Source: a virus
Virus record (IMG/VR): IMGVR_UViG_3300004805_000006
Span: 8,453-72,452 of that record
Length of the DNA: 64,000 nt
Strand: one strand, 5' to 3'
Part shown: in pieces, positions 16,492-44,969 of the stretch
Numbering within the stretch: position 1 is the first letter of the stretch
Layout: each line of letters begins with the position of its first letter
The notes under the pieces: model-generated
The model's input: only the letters and a program-made list of their open reading frames with translations
The model's database searches: none
What the model was told of the DNA's origin: nothing
Position numbers and translations under genes: made by a program

Positions 16492-16850
16492 TGGAGATGC
16501 CGAGAGTCGAACTCGGGTCCACAATGCCGTTACTAAAAAGTTGACGATGATAGTTTAAAACTACTACATAGTTTTTTAAGAGAAACTACTAAACTCTATT
16601 TTACTAGTTTAAAACACTGTTAGATTCTGTTGCTAGGCTCTAACAAAGCCCCATGATAGTGCTTATTAAGCAGCCATCAAATAGTTGCTCTTAGATTTAA
16701 CAACACTAATTCCGTCATTAAGTGATCCACGAGCATAATCAACCATTTTTACTTTGCCATTTATATTTCTGAACAAGTGTTAACGTAGTTTGTTCCGTCT
16801 ACGCATCGAGTCTTTAGCTTCATACACCATGTCGAAACCATTACATCCCC
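16492..16850 (-). ncRNA. ssrA: tmRNA; tag (A)GKVKMVDYARGSLNDGISVVKSKSNYLMAA
   Basis: 5' GGGGATGTAATGGTTTCGAC; 3' CCGAGTTCGACTCTCGG-CATCTCC-A with G3:U70; ATAAAT-GGC resume context; tag ends AA-TAA-TAA (16666-16758). Confidence 0.95.
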
Positions 16851-18872: not shown

Positions 18873-18891
18873 TGCCTTTTCCTCCTTGTTG

Positions 18892-18964
18892 AGCGGGTAG
18901 CAGAACTTGAATCTGCACCATAGAGATTGGAAATCTCTTGTTCCACCAGTTGAACTATACCCGC
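18892..18964 (-). tRNA. tRNA-Gly (TCC)
   Basis: GCGGGTA/TACCCGC acceptor; AGAGA-TTTCCAA-TCTCT anticodon arm; GCAGA-TTCAAGT-TCTGC T arm. Confidence 0.92.
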
Positions 18965-18972
18965 ATATTGTT

Positions 18973-19359
18973 TTAAAATAATGGTAATCCACCAGTTACT
19001 TCATCTATTCTTGAAATTAACCCAGGACCAACTGCTACAGATGTGTATGTAGGAATTCCATGAAACTCAGTTTTACCTATATCTTTAATTAAAGAACATG
19101 GTAGATCTTTAGATTTTGCTTTATCATATATAGCTATTAGTTCTTCTTCTGAGTTAACATAAACACAAATTTTAGTAAATGATTCATTCAGCCACTCTCT
19201 AATTTCTGATGTAGGAGTGTAAATCCATCTAACTTCATCAGTCTTTGTAAGATAGTTAGTAATTGCTGCAGCCATAGATGCGTGTGCCACCTGTGACGCT
19301 AATTTCCCGGTACGCATCTTTAAATCTTTTCTTATTACTATAACTTGTTTTGTTTCCAT
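18973..19359 (-). CDS. pth2: peptidyl-tRNA hydrolase Pth2 (archaeal/eukaryotic type)
   Basis: KQVIVIRKDLKM..GK.ASQVAHAS, KICV, D.GKTEF, AVGP, IDEVTG.LPL. Confidence 0.92.
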   Translation of the reverse strand: METKQVIVIRKDLKMRTGKLASQVAHASMAAAITNYLTKTDEVRWIYTPTSEIREWLNESFTKICVYVNSEEELIAIYDKAKSKDLPCSLIKDIGKTEFHGIPTYTSVAVGPGLISRIDEVTGGLPLF

Positions 19360-19692
19360 TTAAATTTCCTCTGATAGTAACACACTACTAAGGTTTTCAA
19401 ATTTATCATTGAATTCAGTTTCTTCTCTTACAAATACTTTTTTTCTTCGCATATACATTGTCATAACTTGACCTTCAAATCCATTAGTAGCATTTACTAT
19501 ACCTTTACTAACTAGTTCATATACATTACCTGTTTTCTTATGAATGAAATTATTTACCCAACAATCTATACCATATTTTTTAAGGGTCTCTATTTCTACT
19601 TCATTAGCCAGTTGTTTCAATGCAGTGTATAATGCTGAACTATTTGGCAGTCCTATTTGTTCCATCAATTCCCTTAATCGCTCGTCTCTCAT
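19360..19692 (-). CDS. hypothetical protein with DUF1653-like C-terminus
   Basis: HKKTGNVY....NATN....Y....FVRE..EF..KF. Confidence 0.6.
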   Translation of the reverse strand: MRDERLRELMEQIGLPNSSALYTALKQLANEVEIETLKKYGIDCWVNNFIHKKTGNVYELVSKGIVNATNGFEGQVMTMYMRRKKVFVREETEFNDKFENLSSVLLSEEI

Positions 19693-19721
19693 ATCTTTTT
19701 TCCTTAGTATTAAAATTAATG

Positions 19722-19814
19722 TGGCTCCAGAGAGAGGGGACGATCCTCCATACCGTTCGAGACGGGTTATACTAGATTAACAGTCTAGCCACTTACCAAT
19801 TAGTGTACCCTGGA
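19722..19814 (-). tRNA. tRNA-Asn (GTT) with unusually long variable arm, CCA encoded
   Basis: TCCAGGG/CTCTGGA acceptor, G73, CCA; CTAGA-CTGTTAA-TCTAG anticodon arm. Confidence 0.85.
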
Positions 19815-19821
19815 ATATTGT

Positions 19822-20181
19822 TTAAAAGAAATAAATAGCTGGTAATTTTTCTAACTTAGTTCTAGCTTCCTCTAATGCTTCTATAAATGTTTTTAACCCA
19901 TCTTCACGAAGTATGAATTCACTTTCTATTTTAATACTTCCCGTAAATAAAATTTTAAAGGCACACTTTATTCTATATAAAAAATCCATAATACTATTAT
20001 GAGTATGATTATATGAAGACCAAGATAAATTTTTATAAAAATTAATAAAAATCATTTGAAGTTCAGTATCTTTTTCAATATCTATTGTCATGTCGCAATC
20101 AACACTTCCACATTCACACATTGCTCTATACATGACTGAATTTGTATTTTCGCATACTTTCATTACTTTATTGGATATCAT
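19822..20181 (-). CDS. hypothetical protein
   Basis: GGAG RBS; CECG motif. Confidence 0.6.
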   Translation of the reverse strand: MISNKVMKVCENTNSVMYRAMCECGSVDCDMTIDIEKDTELQMIFINFYKNLSWSSYNHTHNSIMDFLYRIKCAFKILFTGSIKIESEFILREDGLKTFIEALEEARTKLEKLPAIYFF

Positions 20182-20206
20182 TTAATCTCCCAATTAAAAA
20201 TTTTTG

Positions 20207-20290
20207 CGGAAGGCAAAGGACTCGAACCTTTAGAGCTGTTACACTCACTTGTTTAGCAAACAAGCTTCTTACCTATTAGAATTAGCTTCC
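20207..20290 (-). tRNA. tRNA-Ser (GCT)
   Basis: CTTGT-TTGCTAA-ACAAG anticodon arm, long variable arm, AAAGG-TTCGAGT-CCTTT T arm, G73. Confidence 0.88.
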
Positions 20291-20503
20291 TTATTTAAAA
20301 AAATTCATTATATATTTTAAAATATTTTCATCCAAGATAGTATATTCATCAAATATGAATATCAAAGTTAATGTAACAATAGGACCTATAATAAGCACTG
20401 CTATATTAATACCTAATAAAAATCCTTTCCATGCTATTTTTTCTTCTTCTGATAAATGTTTGTTAAAAATTCCTTTGGATATTTTTTTTAATGTTATATA
20501 CAT
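20291..20503 (-). CDS. small membrane protein
   Basis: Single hydrophobic segment. Confidence 0.5.
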   Translation of the reverse strand: MYITLKKISKGIFNKHLSEEEKIAWKGFLLGINIAVLIIGPIVTLTLIFIFDEYTILDENILKYIMNFFK

Positions 20504-20859
20504 GAGAGCCTCTTTATCTCATTTAAAAAATCACCATACCCAAATGGTTTATCAAACCAACTATCAAATCCTGCAAGATGGAAATTACTGCTATTAATAA
20601 GGTCACTATATCCAGATAATGCTATTATTTTTACTTCTTTGTCTATCTCCCTGATTTTTAAACAAAATTCTAATCCATTCATTTTAGTTAAACCTATATC
20701 GGTTATTATTAAATCGTATTTACCAGGTTCAAAAAGTTCTAACGCTTCTTCTGCAGACCCAACATCATCTAATAATTCTATTCCAGCTATATGTCTAACA
20801 ATAGAACGTAATAATATTCTACCACTTTCATCATCTTCTACAATTAGAATTTTTTTCAT
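20494..20859 (-). CDS. single-domain response regulator (CheY-like)
   Basis: ILIVEDD, DLIITDIGL..MNG, IIALSG, KP. Confidence 0.92.
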   Translation of the reverse strand: MKKILIVEDDESGRILLRSIVRHIAGIELLDDVGSAEEALELFEPGKYDLIITDIGLTKMNGLEFCLKIREIDKEVKIIALSGYSDLINSSNFHLAGFDSWFDKPFGYGDFLNEIKRLSCI

Positions 20860-20882
20860 GACTACCTCCTAATTTAATTTTA

Positions 20883-20954
20883 AGTCCGTGACATGGATCG
20901 AACCTGCATGAACCATTTTCGTAAAATGGGGCTACTCCTTTTAGCTACACGGAC
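20883..20954 (-). tRNA. tRNA-Arg (ACG)
   Basis: GTCCGTG/CACGGAC acceptor; CCATT-TTACGAA-AATGG anticodon arm; GGTTCGAT. Confidence 0.85.
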
Positions 20955-20959
20955 ATTAG

Positions 20960-21039
20960 TACCCAAGAGAAGATTTGAACTTCCATACCTATTGGCACAG
21001 TTTCTAAGACTGCTGGCTATACCGTTCGCCTACTTGGGC
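20960..21039 (-). tRNA. tRNA-Leu (TAG)
   Basis: GCCCAAG/CTTGGGT acceptor; GCAGT-CTTAGAA-ACTGT anticodon arm; variable arm. Confidence 0.88.
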
Positions 21040-21060: not shown

Positions 21061-21130
21061 ATGCGGGAGAGGGAATCAAACCCCCTAAAACTGATTTATG
21101 AGACCAGTACGAATATCAATTCTTCCCGCA
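21061..21130 (-). tRNA. tRNA-Met/Ile2 (CAT), degenerate D arm and T loop
   Basis: TGCGGGA/TCCCGCA acceptor; CTGGT-CTCATAA-ATCAG anticodon arm; T loop TTTGATT. Confidence 0.65.
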
Positions 21131-21134
21131 ATAT

Positions 21135-21533
21135 CTATTCAAAATCTAAATCCATGCCAGGATTAGTAATTGATTCTTCTACTAATTTTTTAGTGAACGC
21201 AAATTCTGGTGAATCATATAATTCTTGCATATCTAAAGTTAAATAACTACTTGTTTCCTTTTTCTTATCACTTGCTCCTGGGCAACCCATCTTTTTTCCT
21301 TTACGCATAACACAACTTCTAATCTTTGCTTTAGTTGCGTCAGAAAACTTTGAACGGTTTAAAAGCCTAAGTGCTGCTGTATAATGAATACAATCAGGAA
21401 CTGGAAAACTGCGTTCAGGACCACAATAAGTACTTGATTTTAAAGCTTTTCTATCCTTAGTAGTTAAAACTTTAGCTATTTCTAAAGCCTTCTGTGCCCT
21501 CTTAATGGCTGAATTTAAACTATCTATTTCCAT
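21135..21533 (-). CDS. basic phage protein (GPERSFPVPD..H..AAL motif)
   Basis: AAGGAGG RBS; R..L..S.YCGP.RSFP.PD motif of the kind seen in phage head/protease-associated domains. Confidence 0.65.
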   Translation of the reverse strand: MEIDSLNSAIKRAQKALEIAKVLTTKDRKALKSSTYCGPERSFPVPDCIHYTAALRLLNRSKFSDATKAKIRSCVMRKGKKMGCPGASDKKKETSSYLTLDMQELYDSPEFAFTKKLVEESITNPGMDLDFE

Positions 21534-21549: not shown

Positions 21550-21579
21550 AAGGTAGAGAGGATAATATCTCTCTACCTT
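21550..21579 (-). terminator. hairpin downstream of the micro-ORF array
   Basis: AAGGTAGAGAG/CTCTCTACCTT 11-bp stem. Confidence 0.55.
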
Positions 21580-21603
21580 GTAAGGTTACATTATTATTTC
21601 AAA

Positions 21604-21642
21604 TCATTTTGGTTTCGGTTTCGGTTTTGCCTTGCATCCCAT
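21604..21642 (-). CDS. micropeptide MGCKAKPKPKPK
   Basis: AAAGGAGGTGAT SD, ATG, TGA; part of an 81-bp tandem unit. Confidence 0.7.
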   Translation of the reverse strand: MGCKAKPKPKPK

Positions 21643-21684
21643 TAATCAATCACCTCCTTTTCCATTATTTAATAATATTAAAAA

Positions 21685-21723
21685 TCATTTGGGTTTTGGT
21701 TTCGGTTTTGCCTTGCATCCCAT
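21685..21723 (-). CDS. micropeptide MGCKAKPKPKPK
   Basis: AAAGGAGGTGAT SD; differs from the neighbouring copy only at synonymous Pro codons. Confidence 0.7.
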   Translation of the reverse strand: MGCKAKPKPKPK

Positions 21724-21765
21724 TAATCAATCACCTCCTTTTCCATTATTTAATAATATTAAAAA

Positions 21766-21816
21766 TCATTTGGGTTTTGGTTTTGGTTTTGGTACTGGTT
21801 TTGTAGTTCCGCCCAT
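21766..21816 (-). CDS. micropeptide MGGTTKPVPKPKPKPK
   Basis: AGGAGGTGA SD immediately after the methyltransferase stop codon. Confidence 0.7.
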   Translation of the reverse strand: MGGTTKPVPKPKPKPK

Positions 21817-21833
21817 TATAAGTCACCTCCTAA

Positions 21834-22418
21834 TTAATATTTATTAAAAATGTTTTGAAAAGCTTCATAATATGGACCAGGTGTTTGTTTATCTATCCAC
21901 CCTATCATTCTTCCCCCACGACTTAATATTCTAGAACAAGCCGTAGACATATCCGCTATTAATGGTAATGTTTCATCGTCAATTATATTATAACAGTCTA
22001 TAAAAATAAAATCATATTTTTTATTTGTTTGATAAGCATACTCAATGCCGTCAGAATGTAAAATTCTATGTTTTTCTGGAGTATATGATAAATCTAATCC
22101 TCTATCTTCTTCTTTTATCTTACCACATACCTTTATAACATCCATATTATTTTCTACTGTAGTTACATGCGTAACCTTAGGAAATGTTAATAGATACCTA
22201 GAAACTATACCTAACCCTAAACCTACGTCTAAACAATTTCCTTTTGGAAAGTCAGATATCTGACGCATATAATCTACAAGTTCGCCTTCAGCACAACATA
22301 GAGTATGACCCGTACCCACCTCAAGAAATAGTTCTCTGTTCATTTTATAAACTCTAGCTTTGCCATGTTCAGCTATCATTTCACCATCTTTAAAATAAAT
22401 AAGTCCCTTTTTAGTCAT
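21834..22418 (-). CDS. class I SAM-dependent methyltransferase (spermidine-synthase-like fold)
   Basis: LDVGLGLG, VTTVE, DG.EY, YDFIFID. Confidence 0.8.
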   Translation of the reverse strand: MTKKGLIYFKDGEMIAEHGKARVYKMNRELFLEVGTGHTLCCAEGELVDYMRQISDFPKGNCLDVGLGLGIVSRYLLTFPKVTHVTTVENNMDVIKVCGKIKEEDRGLDLSYTPEKHRILHSDGIEYAYQTNKKYDFIFIDCYNIIDDETLPLIADMSTACSRILSRGGRMIGWIDKQTPGPYYEAFQNIFNKY

Positions 22419-22436: not shown

Positions 22437-22730
22437 CTATTCTACTCGTGGTTTAGTAATATCAATTGGTTTATCAAACTTTAGATCAATTGTTAAAAGT
22501 ACACCACCTTTAAGTATTGGGTCTTTGACATCACCACTCTCTAAAGTTTCAATAATATGAGCGTAATACCCAACATTAATATTAGATTTTTTAGATATTG
22601 GTATATAAATATCTAGAGCAGCATTAACTTCTGACCTAACCCAATTAGCCCAAGCCTGTATTTTTTCTTCTTCGGTTAATTCACTAATATTTTGAACTAC
22701 ATCCATTTCCTGATCAGATACTTCTACCAT
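22437..22730 (-). CDS. hypothetical protein
   Basis: AAGGAG RBS. Confidence 0.6.
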   Translation of the reverse strand: MVEVSDQEMDVVQNISELTEEEKIQAWANWVRSEVNAALDIYIPISKKSNINVGYYAHIIETLESGDVKDPILKGGVLLTIDLKFDKPIDITKPRVE

Positions 22731-23218
22731 GATTGATCTCCTTTATCTACTTGTTTACCCTGTTTAGACATTTCTTTTTCTTGGTCATAAACATCATTAA
22801 CTAATGTAGCAAGTTTAAACTTCCAATCTGGATCATCTACATTACACTGTTGTTCCATTCTAAAATCTGATAAATCATGAGGCAAAAGTTTAATTTTATC
22901 TTGCTCGTCGATAAAAATATGTCTTAATTCATGTGACATAATTCTTTTTCTATCTGCGGCATTAGCTAATTCCCAAGTTTTTTGATCAAAAACAATAATA
23001 ACATCATACCCATCTGTCGCAATATCATCCTTAGAGAAGAATTTAATTTTATCAGATGATACTTCAGCGCTTGCTAATATTACTTCACCTTGTTTAATTC
23101 TTCGTTTAGTATCAAAAATTAATTTAATTTTTAATTGCGCCAAATTAGGAAATCTTTCTTCCATTACCGATAAAAAAACTTCAACTACATCATCATCAAC
23201 ATCTGTAAATCTAATCAT
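22724..23218 (-). CDS. putative phage metallopeptidase
   Basis: HELRH (HExxH) followed by HD...F. Confidence 0.7.
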   Translation of the reverse strand: MIRFTDVDDDVVEVFLSVMEERFPNLAQLKIKLIFDTKRRIKQGEVILASAEVSSDKIKFFSKDDIATDGYDVIIVFDQKTWELANAADRKRIMSHELRHIFIDEQDKIKLLPHDLSDFRMEQQCNVDDPDWKFKLATLVNDVYDQEKEMSKQGKQVDKGDQSW

Positions 23219-23231
23219 AATCCTTCTCCTT

Positions 23232-23480
23232 TTAAACGTGATAGTTAGCATTAATATGATTTTTAAGTTCTAGTAGACTATCTACTAACCTATAACTCAT
23301 ATCAACTTGTTTTTTATTTTTTTCGTCGCTATTAGCATTTAATTGTTTTTCTATTATAATGCCACCAGAAAAAGAGTTTCCACTTTTATCGTAGCAAAGA
23401 CGAATAGATTTGCCATTTTTTAATTTTTTTATTCTAACTCTTCCACCATTATTTACACATTCTTCGAAATCCTTCCTCAT
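23232..23480 (-). CDS. hypothetical protein
   Basis: AGGAGG RBS. Confidence 0.6.
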   Translation of the reverse strand: MRKDFEECVNNGGRVRIKKLKNGKSIRLCYDKSGNSFSGGIIIEKQLNANSDEKNKKQVDMSYRLVDSLLELKNHINANYHV

Positions 23481-23539: not shown

Positions 23540-23567
23540 AAGATAAGCATCATTTACTAAATGTCAA
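23540..23567 (-). promoter_or_regulatory. sigma70-like promoter (variant)
   Basis: TTGACA-N16-TATCTT. Confidence 0.5.
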
Positions 23568-23910
23568 GGTTTAAATTATAAAAAATTTCAGTATTAAATG
23601 GTGCAGATATAGCATTAGGAATTAAACTTTTAATAATAGCTGAAGCTGGAATATTCCATGAGTGGATTATAGTAATAGCTGTATTATTAAAATTACGTGG
23701 ATTATTTTTTAAAAATTTTGCCACATCAATACCCTTACCATTACCTTTACCAAGATCGTTGTCTAGGAATAAGTAATCAAATTTATAACACTGCAAATAT
23801 TCTATAGCATTAATAGCATTTTCAGTTATTTTTAAATTGTATTGTCCAAAACGTTCTACAAAAAATCTTACCCTAAATACATCATCTTCAAGTACCATTA
23901 TGTGTGTCAT
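23557..23910 (-). CDS. receiver-fold protein (cyclic-phosphate-processing receiver-like)
   Basis: VLEDD..R, LFLDNDLG, G.DVA, IIHSWN. Confidence 0.75.
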   Translation of the reverse strand: MTHIMVLEDDVFRVRFFVERFGQYNLKITENAINAIEYLQCYKFDYLFLDNDLGKGNGKGIDVAKFLKNNPRNFNNTAITIIHSWNIPASAIIKSLIPNAISAPFNTEIFYNLNLDI

Positions 23911-24715
23911 GTATTTTACCTGTTATATTGGTAATATTGGTAATAGTAGAAATAAATAAATCACTTTTTTTAATTTGCACGGCTTTTAAAAACACATCTA
24001 GTACTTTACCATCTTTAGTTACAAATTGTGTTTCTATTTCTCCTACTCCAGTTTCTTTTATCTGTTTATATTTTAATTCACCCACACGTTCAAATTCATC
24101 ATCTGTTAAGTAATATAATCGCGTAGATTTATTTAATAATTCTTCTTTAGTATAACCAAGTAAATCTAAAAGATACTGATTAGTATTAATTAATATTCTT
24201 TTACCACTATTACCCTCTATAAGTACTATACCTATAGGAGTAGCATTAAATAATGCATCTAAAGTTGCTTCTCTACATGTTAGATCTTCTAAAGCTTTCT
24301 TTTCTACTGTTATATCTTTTAATACATGTATAAAACCTAAAAGTTGATTACTATGAGAATAAATAGGGGATACAGTTACATCAAACCAACCAGTTAATTT
24401 TTTTATATAAATATCTTTTACTATTCTACTTGGTTTACATACGCTATAATCATAAATACTTAGGCTTGACAAAACATCTTGTGGATAAACCTGTATTTCT
24501 TCGTAACAAATCTTGTCATAAAGTTCCTCTTTACTCTTTTTTAATCTTGTAGATAAAATCTCATTAACAAATTTTATTTCAAGTTTATTATTTATTATAT
24601 AGATACATTCTGGTATTGCATCTAAAGCGTATTCCCACATCTTTGCCTGGTCTCTAAGATACCCATTTTTAGTCAGTGCCTCAGTTAGTTCTCTAAGTTT
24701 TTTTAGTTCGTCCAT
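23888..24715 (-). CDS. tandem PAS domain protein with no output domain
   Basis: Two PAS/PAC repeats: LDAIPE.I..FVN..KDIT and FNATPIG..N...LLGY.KEEL..KDG..NIT. Confidence 0.85.
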   Translation of the reverse strand: MDELKKLRELTEALTKNGYLRDQAKMWEYALDAIPECIYIINNKLEIKFVNEILSTRLKKSKEELYDKICYEEIQVYPQDVLSSLSIYDYSVCKPSRIVKDIYIKKLTGWFDVTVSPIYSHSNQLLGFIHVLKDITVEKKALEDLTCREATLDALFNATPIGIVLIEGNSGKRILINTNQYLLDLLGYTKEELLNKSTRLYYLTDDEFERVGELKYKQIKETGVGEIETQFVTKDGKVLDVFLKAVQIKKSDLFISTITNITNITGKIHDTHNGT

Positions 24716-42542: not shown

Positions 42543-42570
42543 AATATAAGACCTATTACTTATTTGTCAA
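42543..42570 (-). promoter_or_regulatory. sigma70-like promoter for the replication operon
   Basis: TTGACA-N16-TATATT. Confidence 0.7.
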
Positions 42571-44969
42571 GATGCTAGTAAATAAATTCTTTTTTCACTA
42601 TTAATTTCATCACCACGTTTTTCTTCTATTATAATCGCTCCCCATGGAGTAGCTATGAATATTACATTTCCATTATTATGCTTAGATGTTCCTTCTGTTA
42701 CATAAATATCAGATATATAAGATGATCTTAATACACTATATTTTTTAGATATATATTCATAGCCCCCGCCGCTATTATAAACAGCACATAATTTAGCTGC
42801 TTGAAATATGTCATTTATACTGGCACCTCTACTTACAGTATATGTGGAAGGTGAAGGATCATAATGTCGTACTCTAATCCAATCTATTTCAATCTTTGGC
42901 TGATAATAGTCATTACAAAAAGTAAATATTAATTGCCTATAAGCAGGATCAGTTAATATTCCAGATGAAACTAAAGTTTCTCCATCATAATTAGACATTT
43001 GGTAGTTAAGAGTTTCAACAAATGTATGAGTTTTAAAGGAATAACTAGTAAGTTTGGTTCCATATTTTATACCTTGATTTGAAGCAGATGATAAATAATG
43101 AGGAGTTTCCGTAGGGCAACCTATATAAACCATAGCACCACCATTAAAACCAACTTCCCAATCTAAATCTGAATCATAATTATGCCCAGTAGCAGGAGGA
43201 ACTGTTCTAAAACTATATTCAATAACACTATTACTAAATACATCTGAACTTATTAAAGATATAGGATAACTATTACTATAAGTATTTAGTCTAAGTATAC
43301 TATTAGAAATAGTATACGTATTGTTAGCATATCCACTATTAGCAAATGTCCAATTGTTAGATAAAGTAGATTCATTAAAATCATCAAATAAAGTAAAAGT
43401 ATCTTTTTGACTAGATTTAGTTTTAACATCAGGATTACCATAAAGAATATAAAATTTTTCGGTGCCTTTAGAAAGTTTAACCCATATTTTAGGAGGAGTA
43501 ATATAATTCCAAGATTCAATATAGTAAAATACAGCTACGCCTTTATCGTCAACTATTCTTATATCAGCACCTTCTTTTTGAGATTGTCTATATATTTCAT
43601 CAGGTTGTGTCATGGGTATTTCAAACAAAAATTGGTAATTATTTTCTGGTATAGGAGATAACAATTCTACTAGTCTATTATACTCCCAACCAAAAATATT
43701 GTCATCCAGTCCTATTACATTATTAAATGGATTTACTGTATAATAATAATCACCAGTTGAAGTCTGAAAACATTTTGTTATATCATCTTTAATTATATAT
43801 TCTCTTGCCCCGTCAGAAAATTTATATCTATCAACGCCAGATACTGTAGACGCACATAGATAATCACCACTTCCATGCAAATAATTAACATCGTTAGCTG
43901 TTATAAATGGATAACTTCTATACTCTTCTAAAAATAATGTTCCACTAATAGTATCTACTGAACCTCTGTATATACCTGAATTAGTTGTAGCGACATAAAA
44001 ATAATCACTATTAGCCCATATAGAGTTTGCACCATCAACAAGTGATATAGAATTTGTTAATATTTCTGAGGATGAATTATATATTTCTACACCTTGTTTT
44101 GTAGCTTTATAGATATATGGGTCGTTGTACCATATATTTCTTTTTCTATTTGAATAAAAAGTTGATATTACTTTAAATATTCCAGGTACTATAAATTTAT
44201 GTATTGTCTTACTTCCAGATATAGTAATTATACCACCGGTAGCCATAATATCTTCAGTTTTATAACTAATAATGACTATACCAGATCCTCCAGTACCAGT
44301 AACTCCAGAACCACTTCTCTCTGATCCACCTCCACCACCACCAGTATTAGCTATTCCAGGTGTAGCATTAGCTTTGGATCCATTACCTCCACCTCCTTTA
44401 CCACCTATTCCAGGAGTTCCAGAGTAATATGTAGAGCCACCTCCTCCACCACCAATCCAACGAACACCGTCTATATCTACTCCAGCATTTGATGATATCA
44501 ATAAATCAGAATATAAATTTGTACCATCACCACCCTTACCACCAGCATTATATGTACCATTTACTCCATCAGTTCCAGCCCCACCTCCGCCACCTTGACC
44601 ATAATATGATGAAGAATATCCAGTTCCGCCCTTATTACCTCCCACTCTAAGTGCTACTCCAGGATAACCTGTTTTTGTAGCACCACCACCAGAACCACCA
44701 TTATTACCATTAAAATTACTATCATCTCCTCCAGCACCGCCACCTAAAGATACTATATTGTCAAAATATGAGTATTGACCGTTTATATGATGGGTAGTTC
44801 CTCCTATACCTACAAACACATAATATTCAGCAACATGCACTAAATAGTCGCTTACATAAGTAACACCACCAGCACCACCACCTGCTCCATGGTAAAGTGT
44901 GGCACCGCCGCACCCACCACCTGCAACTACTAAAACTTCTACATAACCGTCAATATCTGTTAATGCCAA
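42567..44969 (-). CDS. virion structural protein: glycine-rich domain plus DUF2341-like domain
   Basis: VLVVAGGG..GGGAGG repeats; DIR..D......YIE.W....WVK...YGNP..FDDF. Confidence 0.75.
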   Translation of the reverse strand: MALTDIDGYVEVLVVAGGGCGGATLYHGAGGGAGGVTYVSDYLVHVAEYYVFVGIGGTTHHINGQYSYFDNIVSLGGGAGGDDSNFNGNNGGSGGGATKTGYPGVALRVGGNKGGTGYSSSYYGQGGGGGAGTDGVNGTYNAGGKGGDGTNLYSDLLISSNAGVDIDGVRWIGGGGGGSTYYSGTPGIGGKGGGGNGSKANATPGIANTGGGGGGSERSGSGVTGTGGSGIVIISYKTEDIMATGGIITISGSKTIHKFIVPGIFKVISTFYSNRKRNIWYNDPYIYKATKQGVEIYNSSSEILTNSISLVDGANSIWANSDYFYVATTNSGIYRGSVDTISGTLFLEEYRSYPFITANDVNYLHGSGDYLCASTVSGVDRYKFSDGAREYIIKDDITKCFQTSTGDYYYTVNPFNNVIGLDDNIFGWEYNRLVELLSPIPENNYQFLFEIPMTQPDEIYRQSQKEGADIRIVDDKGVAVFYYIESWNYITPPKIWVKLSKGTEKFYILYGNPDVKTKSSQKDTFTLFDDFNESTLSNNWTFANSGYANNTYTISNSILRLNTYSNSYPISLISSDVFSNSVIEYSFRTVPPATGHNYDSDLDWEVGFNGGAMVYIGCPTETPHYLSSASNQGIKYGTKLTSYSFKTHTFVETLNYQMSNYDGETLVSSGILTDPAYRQLIFTFCNDYYQPKIEIDWIRVRHYDPSPSTYTVSRGASINDIFQAAKLCAVYNSGGGYEYISKKYSVLRSSYISDIYVTEGTSKHNNGNVIFIATPWGAIIIEEKRGDEINSEKRIYLLAS

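Follow-up and report, generated by a model that had tools for sequence, protein, structure and literature searches.

Three minus-strand open reading frames (ORFs) in the window, that is, the whole 64,000-nucleotide stretch of DNA that was analysed, are best explained as translated and tandemly amplified members of a class of phage (Lys-Pro)n, or (KP)n, micro-genes whose products would act as polyamine-like polycations. We put the probability of this explanation as a whole at roughly 40%. Its components differ in strength. Judging from sequence data, the three ORFs are very probably real genes, and they quite probably belong to a phage class that is widespread and so far unannotated; a role of the peptides as counter-ions (polycations) of nucleic acids, which is deduced from gene contexts, is tentative and lies well below even odds. 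If the peptides are made, their genes would be among the shortest of any phage, and a recurrent class would have been left out entirely by current annotation.

Organisation of the micro-ORF array and its surroundings

An earlier note on this DNA described three minus-strand micro-ORFs, each led by an SD site, within an 81-bp tandem repeat, and all of the sequence features it described were present (Table 1). Each repeat unit covers the end of one ORF, an AT-rich spacer and an SD together with the beginning of the ORF that follows, and the distance from SD to ATG amounts to 6-7 nt in all three micro-ORFs. The 9-mer AGGAGGTGA occurs exactly three times in the 64 kb, each time at one micro-ORF, and the pattern (AARCCN)3AARTGA was found three times within the window compared to 0 of 100 shuffles. 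As proposed, the first SD lies right behind the upstream gene, starting 2 nt past the TAA stop codon (21836-21834) of a 194-aa ORF, and micro-ORFs 2 and 3 encode identical peptides while differing synonymously at two Pro codons (CCA/CCG and CCC/CCA). Clusters of GGAGGTG at 44300-44600 were considered as further SD sites and dismissed, as they are located inside a Gly-rich 800-aa gene.

Table 1 Features of the array and its neighbourhood in the window
Feature	Position	Strand	Remarks
Micro-ORF 1, MGGTTKPVPKPKPKPK	21766..21816	-	16 aa; ATG at 21816; TGA stop
Micro-ORF 2, MGCKAKPKPKPK	21685..21723	-	12 aa; TGA stop
Micro-ORF 3, MGCKAKPKPKPK	21604..21642	-	12 aa; TGA stop
SD of micro-ORF 1, AGGAGGTGA	21823-21831	-	
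SD of micro-ORF 2, AGGAGGTGA	21731-21739	-	
SD of micro-ORF 3, AGGAGGTGA	21650-21658	-	
Tandem repeat, 81-bp unit	21601..21791		TRF: 2.4 copies, 97% matches, score 361
194-aa spermidine-synthase-fold (SpeE-like) class I transferase gene	21834..22418	-	Directly upstream of array
Conserved 97-aa gene	22437..22730	-	Upstream neighbour of enzyme gene; synteny by tblastn
Hairpin	21550..21579	-	11-bp stem (arms 21579-21569 / 21560-21550), 8-nt loop, then TATTT
Conserved 132-aa gene	21135..21533	-	phrog_16160, function unknown; downstream syntenic neighbour of enzyme gene
tRNA-Leu, Arg, Ser, Asn, Gly	18891-21039	-	ARAGORN
tmRNA	16492-16850	-	ARAGORN

The 11-bp hairpin reported past the array was confirmed as a stable structure (-20.4 kcal/mol, z = -4.0; 0 of 200 shuffles were as stable). 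A simple terminator scan did not call it because the T-run is too short. It probably marks the end of the cassette, as an element that resembles a terminator or stabilises the RNA, and a related locus, L003, carries a hairpin with a longer stem at the same place. Contig breaks near the hairpin were discarded as a termination signal, since they were also present in a DNA run. The array itself exhibited no RNA structure beyond that of shuffles (z = -0.33) and no match to an Rfam family, and an alternative terminator or antiterminator fold overlapping the micro-ORFs was not found; the hairpin alone is stable.

The array is inserted between the 194-aa gene and the 132-aa gene, which are adjacent in L003, L005, L014, L064, L065 and L067. 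The 97-aa gene had no match in Pfam or PHROG, and its synteny was traced by tblastn in L003, L004, L005, L006, L014, L064, L066 and L067. Given the position and strand of the tRNA genes, the array is located upstream of the tRNA cluster; the earlier placement at the head of this cluster thus holds as to order, but not as to direct adjacency, the 132-aa gene lying in between. The array is not part of a packaging module, recognisable lysis genes are not found nearby, and blastn of the array region against 50,697 phage records gave no match. The window derives from a freshwater jumbo phage, of which it is a fragment.

In two RNA-library runs, contigs link the interior of the enzyme gene with micro-ORFs 1 and 2 and with the 3' flank beyond them; this RNA support consists of assembled contigs, and the libraries may contain DNA. 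Two DNA runs and two RNA-library runs yielded contigs in which one 81-bp unit is missing. The copy number is three in the window and one in L003, with a two-copy form in DNA and RNA-library contigs that may result from collapse of the repeat by the assembler. A depth spike at 21751-21832 was rejected as a signal, as it arose from repeats of other organisms.

Comparable micro-ORFs in other phages

Pattern scans of IMG/VR, a search that had been suggested for other phages, retrieved comparable ORFs from about 25 unrelated phage lineages in our own grouping. Their common build comprises an SD, Met, Gly or Ala, 0-6 residues, (Lys-Pro)3-9 and a short tail, encoded in free-standing ORFs of 12-28 aa. 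About a third carry Cys at one end and several have a Tyr end. The three ORFs of the window conform to this build. Across the class, the phages range from 30 to 67% in G+C and use different codons, and TGA, TAA and TAG all serve as stops. A scan for ATG-GGN-TGY followed by 3-18 nt and (KP)2.7 yielded 13 loci, all of them in frame (13/13), with free-standing ORFs of 12-24 aa at nine. Scans anchored on Met-Gly and on the SD were in frame at 53 of 88 and 42 of 55 loci, respectively; counted by lineage, again in our own grouping, the latter was in frame in about 29 of 39 (p = 2e-7 against one third). The exact-type pattern MGCKA... had no match in IMG/VR.

Variation within eight families was dominated by silent changes, with 44 synonymous-only versus 18 residue-changing codon columns, which indicates purifying selection on the peptide, and the length differences seen in three of these families (3, 6 and 9 nt) are all multiples of three. 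For MGCNCGK, five synonymous and no replacement columns were counted, and the ends GGGY and KPC are likewise conserved. The family of the window exhibited three synonymous-only columns and one conservative exchange (Ala/Ser). As a control, the MGC pattern was run over 596 Gb of prokaryote genomes and gave 64 loci, 47 of which all represent the C-terminus of the same protein from Oscillospiraceae. The remaining 17 were out of frame in 13 cases, and none of the four in-frame loci was an SD-led micro-ORF; such micro-ORFs were thus not found in the 596 Gb of bacterial genomes.

Ten class peptides of 20-28 aa were all missing from a collection of 15 billion proteins (0/10 present), and the same ten had no family in PHROGs (best E 0.11). 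Together with the 44 versus 18 codon columns, this supports the earlier suggestion that real micro-genes are missed by ORF tracks. The literature searches gave no paper on phage Lys-Pro micropeptides, although catalogues in supplements could hold such ORFs, and the terms sought on this topic do not occur in one review (PMC11323111).

Several candidates were removed from the set of free-standing ORFs: a long open frame encloses L071/L076, and larger ORFs in another frame enclose L078/L079, L180/L221, L155, L164 and L231. For L265, tblastn with the portal protein led to lambda-like phages of 46% identity or less, which are too distant for a comparison of micro-ORFs.

The window's ORFs might instead not be genes at all, the 81-bp repeat being an AAACC-type microsatellite with chance SD and ATG strings and a role as DNA or RNA, or none. 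The sequence is indeed of low complexity, its copies are recent duplicates, and slippage in the hexamer register could account for the differences between copies 2 and 3. Moreover, the 3' flank after the stop is as conserved between the window and L003 as the ORF, so that conservation in this region extends beyond the ORF. The frame statistics, the synonymous excess and in-frame indels in eight families and the absence from bacteria nevertheless argue for coding, as does the recurrence of one peptide type across such a range of G+C and codons; the lack of an RNA family or of excess structure likewise stands against a role as RNA. We thus consider a non-genic origin highly improbable.

Coding is also favoured by L003, the enzyme of which is 77% identical to that of the window. 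The earlier note had named frameshifts or loss of the SD or ATG in relatives as counting against its reading; L003 retains one peptide copy with SD, ATG, frame and stop, the orthologue of micro-ORF 2 being MGCKSKPKPKPK.

The upstream SpeE-like protein

The gene in front of the array had been described as a class I methyltransferase. Its assignment to the class I transferases was borne out, whereas a plain methylase was not: the 194-aa protein matched Pfam Spermine_synth (PF01564) with 27.2 bits (cut-off 22.9), and none of the generic methyltransferase families in Pfam scored above its own cut-off. The AlphaFold model (pLDDT 90.6) comprises N-terminal beta strands and a Rossmann core. Top Foldseek matches in the PDB were the spermidine synthases 3o4f, 1uir and 1inl (TMq 0.6-0.7), and all of the top ten were SpeE or aminopropyltransferases (E = 1.6e-9 to 1.8e-8). 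A profile search matched E. coli SpeE at 4e-9, with GlGlG over GGGDG and idcyD over sDCTDP; VEI(D/N), the DG positions and the D-C-x-D motif align with the E. coli enzyme. The protein differs from SpeE in length, counting 194 aa compared to about 264-336 aa in the matched chains.

In SpeE, the Asp of GGGDG selects decarboxylated SAM, and the Asp of the sDCTDP-type motif acts on the amine. The former position is occupied by Leu69, and Leu is invariant among the 36 sequences aligned; the latter Asp is retained as Asp141, invariant in the same 36 sequences, while the second Asp of the motif, present in the consensus, corresponds to Asn144 in the window's protein. Since the Asp of GGGDG is missing, the members of this short SpeE-fold family may not be spermidine synthases despite their label. 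Foldseek matches also included the SpeE-fold rRNA m4(2)C methyltransferase 8vyd, so that methyl transfer by the 194-aa protein is equally possible.

A gene for AdoMetDC (PF02675) was absent from the record of this fragment (G000, 30% complete) and from the records of five relatives, two of them 100% complete; the same search was positive in 7 of 14 genomes used as a control. Decarboxylated SAM, for which AdoMetDC would be the source, may also be supplied by the host. According to one report (PMC9992855), a functional phage SpdSyn is paired with AdoMetDC.

Against 50,697 phage records, tblastn of the enzyme retrieved one distant methyltransferase (29.6% identity). Because a single-protein scan of IMG/VR returned a giant-virus MAG only (28% identity), relatives were then sought with alignment-based queries. 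Homologues with a length of about 194 aa number at least 174, most of them with a precomputed PF01564 annotation, which makes this a large family of short SpeE-fold proteins in big phages.

Co-occurrence of enzyme and peptide

The earlier note had proposed a RiPP-like pair of precursor and methylase. A related possibility is that the SpeE-like transferase methylates or aminopropylates the Lys epsilon-amines or the N-terminus of the peptides, which would give a peptide-polyamine hybrid. The SD of micro-ORF 1 next to the enzyme stop, an order of enzyme and peptide that is kept in L003, the RNA-library contigs joining both genes and the retained Asp141 with its role toward amines would all be in line with such a pairing. 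The distribution of the two genes, however, is not. A KP peptide was present at only one of 18 other enzyme loci with a readable downstream region, namely L003, a count that is restricted to the matches listed and leaves out P0001-P0030, relatives of 64-98% identity. A metagenome scan contributed at least five enzyme loci, three of them with a readable downstream region. Conversely, the peptide scans fetched 181 loci, and a single one of them, again the L003 contig, encodes the enzyme; the suggested search in other phages thus recovered the peptide class, but hardly ever the enzyme beside it. The earlier note had named a lack of joint occurrence of methylase and array elsewhere as counting against its reading, and this is largely what was observed.

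Three enzyme loci of identical synteny have an empty slot, and two (L005 and L065) harbour a different small ORF of 45-54 aa that is very basic and rich in Gly, Lys and Arg. A (KP)3K stretch did not occur anywhere in G002, G003 and G004, which encode enzyme homologues of 51%, 54% and 32% identity, respectively; G004, which carries the most distant homologue, is a complete 296-kb genome. In addition, the window's peptides of 12-16 aa are nearly all repeat and lack a leader/core architecture, and the second motif Asp is replaced by Asn144. The idea of a RiPP/methylase pair is weakened by these observations, and modification of the peptides by the enzyme appears quite unlikely. On sequence grounds, the enzyme is a neighbour of the peptide array rather than its obligate partner, and the unit of SD, ORF and hairpin is an accessory cassette in a variable slot that reaches from the SpeE-like gene to the 132-aa gene.

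The ORFs of L005 and L065 resemble the DUF5320 (PF17253) type and share with the KP array the slot, the small size and a basic composition rich in Gly, Lys and Pro. They differ in having no (KP)n run. Their identity as DUF5320 was not accepted, the Pfam matches being sub-threshold (E = 0.15 and 0.46).

Gene context and possible function of the Lys-Pro peptides

Terminase, portal, scaffold or capsid/major-head genes lie directly beside the peptide ORF in nine lineages (L059, L070, L075, L204, the L176 family, the L241 family, L246, the L248/L265 family and L225), a raw context count that is not controlled for the over-representation of head modules, which arises because short IMG/VR contigs are recognised via hallmark structural genes. 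Endolysin or tail-lysozyme genes follow directly or are found nearby in four lineages (L252, L238, L202 and L250), and the ORF overlaps the start of a lysis-related gene in L252 and L238. Other neighbours are tail genes (L189, L194, L215) and an exonuclease or polymerase gene (L144, L260); some further lineages adjoin genes of unknown function. Ten longer phage proteins that start with (KP)n were inspected for a clue from fused domains and set aside, as none had a functional PHROG label.

The following gene starts before several of the micro-ORFs have ended (TAATG, ATGA), which raises the question of whether translation as such matters rather than its product, be it through coupling, unfolding of the mRNA, arrest by the nascent peptide or attenuation in response to Lys or Pro. 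The ORF ends at or a few nt from the next start in L075, L189, L229, L238, L252, L202 and L241, and a hairpin is located 3' of the ORF in the window, L003, the L174 family and L204. With strong SDs, 12-28 codons and a run of two codon types, the ORFs also resemble attenuator leaders and bicistronic mini-cistrons. However, the window's array is followed by 27 nt and the hairpin, with no coupled start codon downstream, and neither an antiterminator fold nor array structure was detected. Three tandem copies would be unexpected for a leader, the genes that follow have nothing to do with the metabolism of Lys or Pro, and the KP peptides are conserved at the peptide level, including non-repeat residues that persist through synonymous changes (the five versus zero columns of MGCNCGK, the GGGY and KPC ends). 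A cis-acting function of this kind therefore seems unlikely.

The lysis-gene neighbours, together with a net charge of about +5, would be compatible with a free peptide that binds LPS, teichoic acids or membranes and aids lysis or entry, similar to polycationic endolysin tags. The peptides possess neither a hydrophobic or amphipathic face nor a signal peptide, the window's array is remote from recognisable lysis genes and most lineages have the ORF outside lysis modules, which makes action on the envelope very unlikely.

Action on the ribosome had been suggested by analogy to apidaecin and oncocin, and would imply that the peptides shut off or reprogram host translation. Like apidaecin, oncocin and Bac7, they are short and consist of alternating basic-Pro repeats, and all three window copies end in TGA. 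The known peptides are eukaryotic, secreted and rich in Arg, and aromatic or Leu residues occupy conserved positions in them. The window's three peptides share none of these features: they contain Lys and no Arg, and no aromatic residue, so that the idea lacks support from the pharmacophore. Furthermore, stops across the class are mixed, and the phage needs the same ribosomes. We regard such a function as scarcely probable.

Among the three functions put forward in the earlier note, a nucleic-acid-condensing peptide fits the gene contexts best. Under the coding reading, the peptide would leave the ribosome and shed its Met, which would give GCKAKPKPKPK and GGTTKPVPKPKPKPK. With Pro after every Lys, these products should resist trypsin-like proteases and general aminopeptidases. 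Lys-Pro bonds resist trypsin, and standard proteomics would thus have missed the peptides. Each would represent a gene-encoded, polyamine-like multivalent cation of about +5 net charge that neutralises bound nucleic acid; the most plausible target would be the DNA of the phage while it is condensed or packaged. The perfect SD and two to three tandem copies would raise the dose, and the terminal Cys, where present, could form disulfide dimers of higher valence. A point against a polycation role is the very large number of peptides that each capsid would have to take up for a jumbo genome to be neutralised.

Small multivalent cations are also represented by the polyamines of phage heads, adenovirus mu/VII, baculovirus P6.9 and protamines, and the terminal Cys of KP peptides could cross-link as in protamines. 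In contrast to mu/VII, P6.9 and protamines, the KP peptides employ Lys-Pro rather than Arg and are direct products of micro-ORFs of 12-28 aa instead of being cut from precursors. To our knowledge, no such peptide has been described from tailed phages. Alternating Lys-Pro in an extended, rigid cationic chain is likewise a property of the S/TPKK and K-P-A tails of histone H1 and of the (Lys-Pro)n rod of TonB; in H1 and TonB, however, the motif forms part of a large protein, while the products discussed here consist of little else than the repeat.

More speculatively, and with a low probability in our estimate, tailed phages of many lineages might produce protease-resistant (Lys-Pro)n counter-ions of 12-28 residues that enter the capsid along with the genome and determine the force of packaging, the pressure in the capsid or ejection; in the jumbo phage of the window, where the gene is tripled, the SpeE-fold enzyme in front of it may in addition convert the peptide into a hybrid with polyamine character by alkylating its lysines. 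The position of class members beside packaging genes raises the question of whether such phages supply DNA counter-ions of their own or depend on host polyamines and Mg2+ only. A polycation role would further be in line with the window's array following an enzyme with a polyamine-synthase fold, and with the same slot being filled by another very basic small ORF in L005 and L065.

A tandem array of lysine-proline micro-ORFs

Behind the gene of a 194-aa SpeE-like enzyme (SpeE, spermidine synthase), analysis of ORFs, tandem repeats (TRF) and folding bore out every detail that the earlier note had read from the sequence, i.e., the micro-ORFs, their Shine–Dalgarno (SD) sites, the repeat and the hairpin (see table). 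The first SD, AGGAGGTGA, starts 2 bases past the TAA of the enzyme gene. This 9-mer occurs three times in the 64 kb and is confined to the array, which consists of 2.4 copies of an 81-bp unit with 97% matches. The pattern (AARCCN)3AARTGA was likewise found three times in the window, as compared to 0 of 100 shuffles, and copies 2 and 3 differ within the ORF in two Pro codons only. The hairpin folds with –20.4 kcal/mol (z = –4.0 against shuffles); its T-run is too short for a simple terminator scan to pick it up. Past the hairpin lie, on the same strand, the genes of a 132-aa protein, five tRNAs and a tmRNA. An Rfam search of the array gave no match. The source record is a 72-kb IMG/VR virus (estimated 30% complete, 30% G+C), and near-identical DNA was present in freshwater and lake metagenomes of 11 studies.

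Several features of the surroundings were recorded as well. An outer helix predicted around the hairpin takes in the ribosome site (AAGGAGG) of the 132-aa gene, whose translation could possibly be masked in this way. The tRNA-like match directly past this gene is absent from the ARAGORN list. The tmRNA gene lies downstream of the tRNA cluster. A GGAGGTG cluster within the 800-aa ORF was rejected as a set of ribosome sites, since the strings arise from the Gly-rich part of that ORF.

Coordinates of features in the window and in related loci
Feature	Location	Strand	Remarks
Enzyme ORF, 194 aa	22418..21834	-	ends in TAA
Micro-ORF 1	21816..21766	-	16 codons, MGGTTKPVPKPKPKPK, TGA; ATG 6 nt after AGGAGGTGA
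Micro-ORF 2	21723..21685	-	12 codons, MGCKAKPKPKPK, TGA; ATG 7 nt after AGGAGGTGA
Micro-ORF 3	21642..21604	-	12 codons, MGCKAKPKPKPK, TGA; ATG 7 nt after AGGAGGTGA
Hairpin	21579-21550	-	11-bp stem; starts 24 bases past last micro-ORF stop
Predicted outer helix	21534-21606	-	5 bp, CCUUA + UAAGG
tRNA-like match	21061-21130	-	28.8 bits; Rfam cut-off 29 bits
Phage tmRNA gene	16492-16850	-	30-residue tag
Two stand-alone receiver domains (Response_reg, cREC_REC) and double-PAS protein	20494-20859, 23557-23910, 23888-24715	-	near array
PhageMetallopep protein	22724-23251		near array
800-aa ORF	42567-44969	-	long Gly-rich N-terminal part
Slot ORF	L005:3589-3753		very basic, Gly/Lys/Arg(/Cys)-rich
Slot ORF	L065:587-724		very basic, Gly/Lys/Arg(/Cys)-rich
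Split homologue of 132-aa gene	L014:3645-5083		residues 3-52 and 51-129 match ~1.05 kb apart
(KP)n-tagged protein	L253:5349-6707
(KP)n-tagged protein	L264:2-1564

Evidence for coding

A relative, L003, retains the translation signals intact: SD (AGGGGGTGA), ATG, frame, length and TGA. Compared with the window copies, three codon columns show synonymous changes only and one an Ala/Ser exchange. Neither a frameshift nor loss of SD or ATG was thus seen in this relative, which favours coding, even if its conservation alone is modest evidence because the 3′ flank is conserved too.

A scan of IMG/VR for ATG-GGN-TGY, a gap of any length from 3 to 18 nt, and KPKPKP yielded 13 loci, all in frame (expected: one third). 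Nine of them carried free-standing ORFs of 12–24 aa (e.g., MGCKPKPKPKPR, MGCNCGKGKPKPKPKPTK, MGCKRKPKPKPKKPRK, MGCGGSRKPKPKPKPK), with an SD-like purine run 5–10 nt upstream in six of their seven peptide types. As a control, the same pattern was run over prokaryote genomes (596 Gb) and matched 64 loci. Of these, 47 correspond to the C-terminal tail of a single Oscillospiraceae protein; 13 of the remaining 17 were out of frame, and the four in-frame loci included no SD-led micro-ORF. The Oscillospiraceae protein (Gemmiger, Faecalibacterium and others; ~250–300 aa; L080–L143, e.g., L128) bears the conserved tail ...GMGCF(L/M)S(R/K)EKPKPKP(V/A/Q)FTN(N/S/A/D), with a second copy in two loci.

Requiring Met-Gly only, 53 of 88 matches were in frame. 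An SD-anchored scan (GGAGG-N4-10-ATG, residues 2–8 unconstrained) gave 42 of 55 in frame, corresponding to about 29 of 39 lineages in our own grouping (p = 2e-7), and added ~18 families of 12–28 aa from phages of 32–67% G+C. Selection on the peptide was evident in eight multi-member families, where 44 variable codon columns were synonymous-only and 18 residue-changing (p ~4e-14; by our estimate about one quarter would be synonymous for Lys/Pro codons). Length differences in three families amounted to 3, 6 and 9 nt, and the non-repeat ends MGCNCGK, GGGY and KPC were kept through synonymous changes. In one study, two RNA-library runs gave contigs reaching from within the enzyme gene across ORFs 1 and 2 and into the 3′ flank. 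This fits co-transcription, although these are contigs only and DNA carry-over is possible.

Taking all lines together, we put the probability that the micro-ORFs are coding at roughly 85%, and chance or non-coding sequence appears very unlikely. Frame statistics, synonymous excess and L003 hence uphold the real micro-genes proposed in the earlier note, in a class that recurs across phages far more broadly than that note saw. No known family accommodates the peptides: none of ten class members of 20–28 aa was present in a collection of 15 billion proteins, PHROGs contained no family for these ten, and the literature searched contained no description of phage Lys-Pro micropeptides.

Ala or Gly predominates at residue 2, the core is (KP)3-9, and several families end in Tyr. 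Cys occurs in 6 of 18 clean families of the SD-anchored sample (about three expected by our estimate), mostly no more than three residues from either end, and is thus frequent, but not defining; in the window one copy lacks it and two bear it. Copy number is three in the window versus one in L003. A form lacking exactly one 81-bp unit appeared in two DNA runs, each from a different study, and in the RNA libraries, in all cases as contigs; it may be a true polymorphism or a repeat collapsed by the assembler.

Enzyme and peptides as neighbours

The enzyme gene forms a conserved unit with a 97-aa gene and the 132-aa gene, the latter of which adjoins it in six other loci. Between enzyme gene and 132-aa gene, the slot is occupied by a single MGCKSKPKPKPK ORF and a hairpin in L003 (enzyme 77% identical) and by a different Gly/Lys/Arg-rich ORF of 45–54 aa with sub-threshold DUF5320 matches in L005 and L065; it is empty in L014, L064 and L067. 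Both L005 and L065 ORFs start MP(G/R)(K/G)DGTGPDGKGPK. Downstream DNA could be read at 18 other enzyme loci, and L003 alone among them carried a (KP)n ORF; its contig was also the only one of 181 peptide-scan loci with the enzyme. No (KP)3K-coding stretch was found anywhere in the records of two larger relatives, nor in a complete 296-kb genome with a distant enzyme homologue (32% identity). Peptide and enzyme thus largely fail to co-occur elsewhere. The core finding, real micropeptide genes, stands; their pairing as precursors with a "methylase" falls, and an enzyme–substrate pair limited to the window lineage is rather unlikely. The array, independent of the enzyme, is most readily viewed as an accessory cassette placed in a variable slot. 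In L014, the split 132-aa homologue shows a stop after ...FSY and then structured-looking sequence, possibly an intron or homing-endonuclease insertion.

A divergent SpeE-fold transferase

Instead of the generic class I methyltransferase suggested before, Pfam assigned the enzyme to Spermine_synth (27.2 bits, cut-off 22.9); the PHROGs label was "methyltransferase" (1.8e-7). At least 174 homologues of nearly equal length were found, with contigs reaching 330 kb. A structure model from a 36-homologue alignment (pLDDT 90.6) had spermidine synthases and aminopropyltransferases as closest PDB neighbours (TMq 0.6–0.7), with a SpeE-fold rRNA m4(2)C methyltransferase lower in the list. In profile alignments with E. 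coli SpeE, the invariant G-L-G-L-G of the family falls on GGGDG, so that Leu69 takes the position of the SpeE Asp, and I-D-C-Y-D falls on S-D-C-T-D-P. Asp141 is invariant, whereas the second Asp of the motif is Asn144 in the window protein. No AdoMetDC gene was detected in the window's fragment or in the records of five relatives (two complete), while the control search was positive in 7 of 14 genomes. The only functional phage spermidine synthase encountered in the literature searched clusters with AdoMetDC (PMC9992855). We therefore use the label "SpeE-fold transferase", leaving donor and acceptor unspecified. Within the SpeE fold, the enzyme is a divergent member departing from one of the defining motifs.

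Gene neighbourhoods and proposed role

PHROGs calls on adjoining ORFs placed the peptide between the large terminase subunit and portal (L070), directly behind terminase (L075, L204) or directly ahead of it (L241 family), between portal and scaffold (L059) or protease-capsid fusion (L248/L265), after portal/adaptor (L246), directly ahead of the major head protein (L176 family) and after a head protein (L225). Nine of ~24 lineages touch packaging or head genes, an association that is suggestive only, since short viral contigs are recognised by those same genes. Elsewhere, tail proteins follow the peptide (L189, L194) or a weak tape-measure-like match precedes it (L215); it also adjoins an exonuclease or polymerase-like gene (L144, L260), follows a 2OG oxygenase (L227) and lies among genes without assigned function (L072 and L229 families, L251, L069). 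Other copies lie just before endolysin (L252, L238), near it (L202) or behind a tail lysozyme (L250); that the peptide aids lysis by acting on the envelope is nevertheless improbable. Stop–start overlaps with the next gene in other phages would suit a cis-acting mini-cistron, an unlikely reading that the window layout does not support; nor does the array RNA, which shows no excess of structure over shuffles (z = –0.33).

The product would be a free oligocation with a net charge of about +5. Proline after lysine blocks trypsin-like enzymes and general aminopeptidases, and its position after every Lys should shield the peptide from both. Known Lys-Pro rods are extended chains; by analogy, the alternation should keep the peptide extended. 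A multivalent cation of this size would be expected to condense DNA, and tandem amplification together with a perfect SD would fit a product needed in bulk. Based on cation size, adjacency to packaging genes in many phages, the neighbour of polyamine-synthase fold and bulk dosage, we tentatively favour a role as nucleic-acid counter-ion; a PrAMP-like ribosome binder is highly improbable. Polyamines and small basic DNA-condensing peptides of other viruses would be closest in function. Unlike these, the class is Lys-Pro, 12–28 aa long, directly encoded and found in tailed phages.

Longer phage proteins of 284–1074 aa (L253, L264, L259, L244, L145) carry this Met-Ala/Gly-x-(KP)n tag at their N-terminus. 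PHROGs gave no function for them; L253 and L264 share ...LPGTLTG...GPGVNAPEVLRG past the tag.
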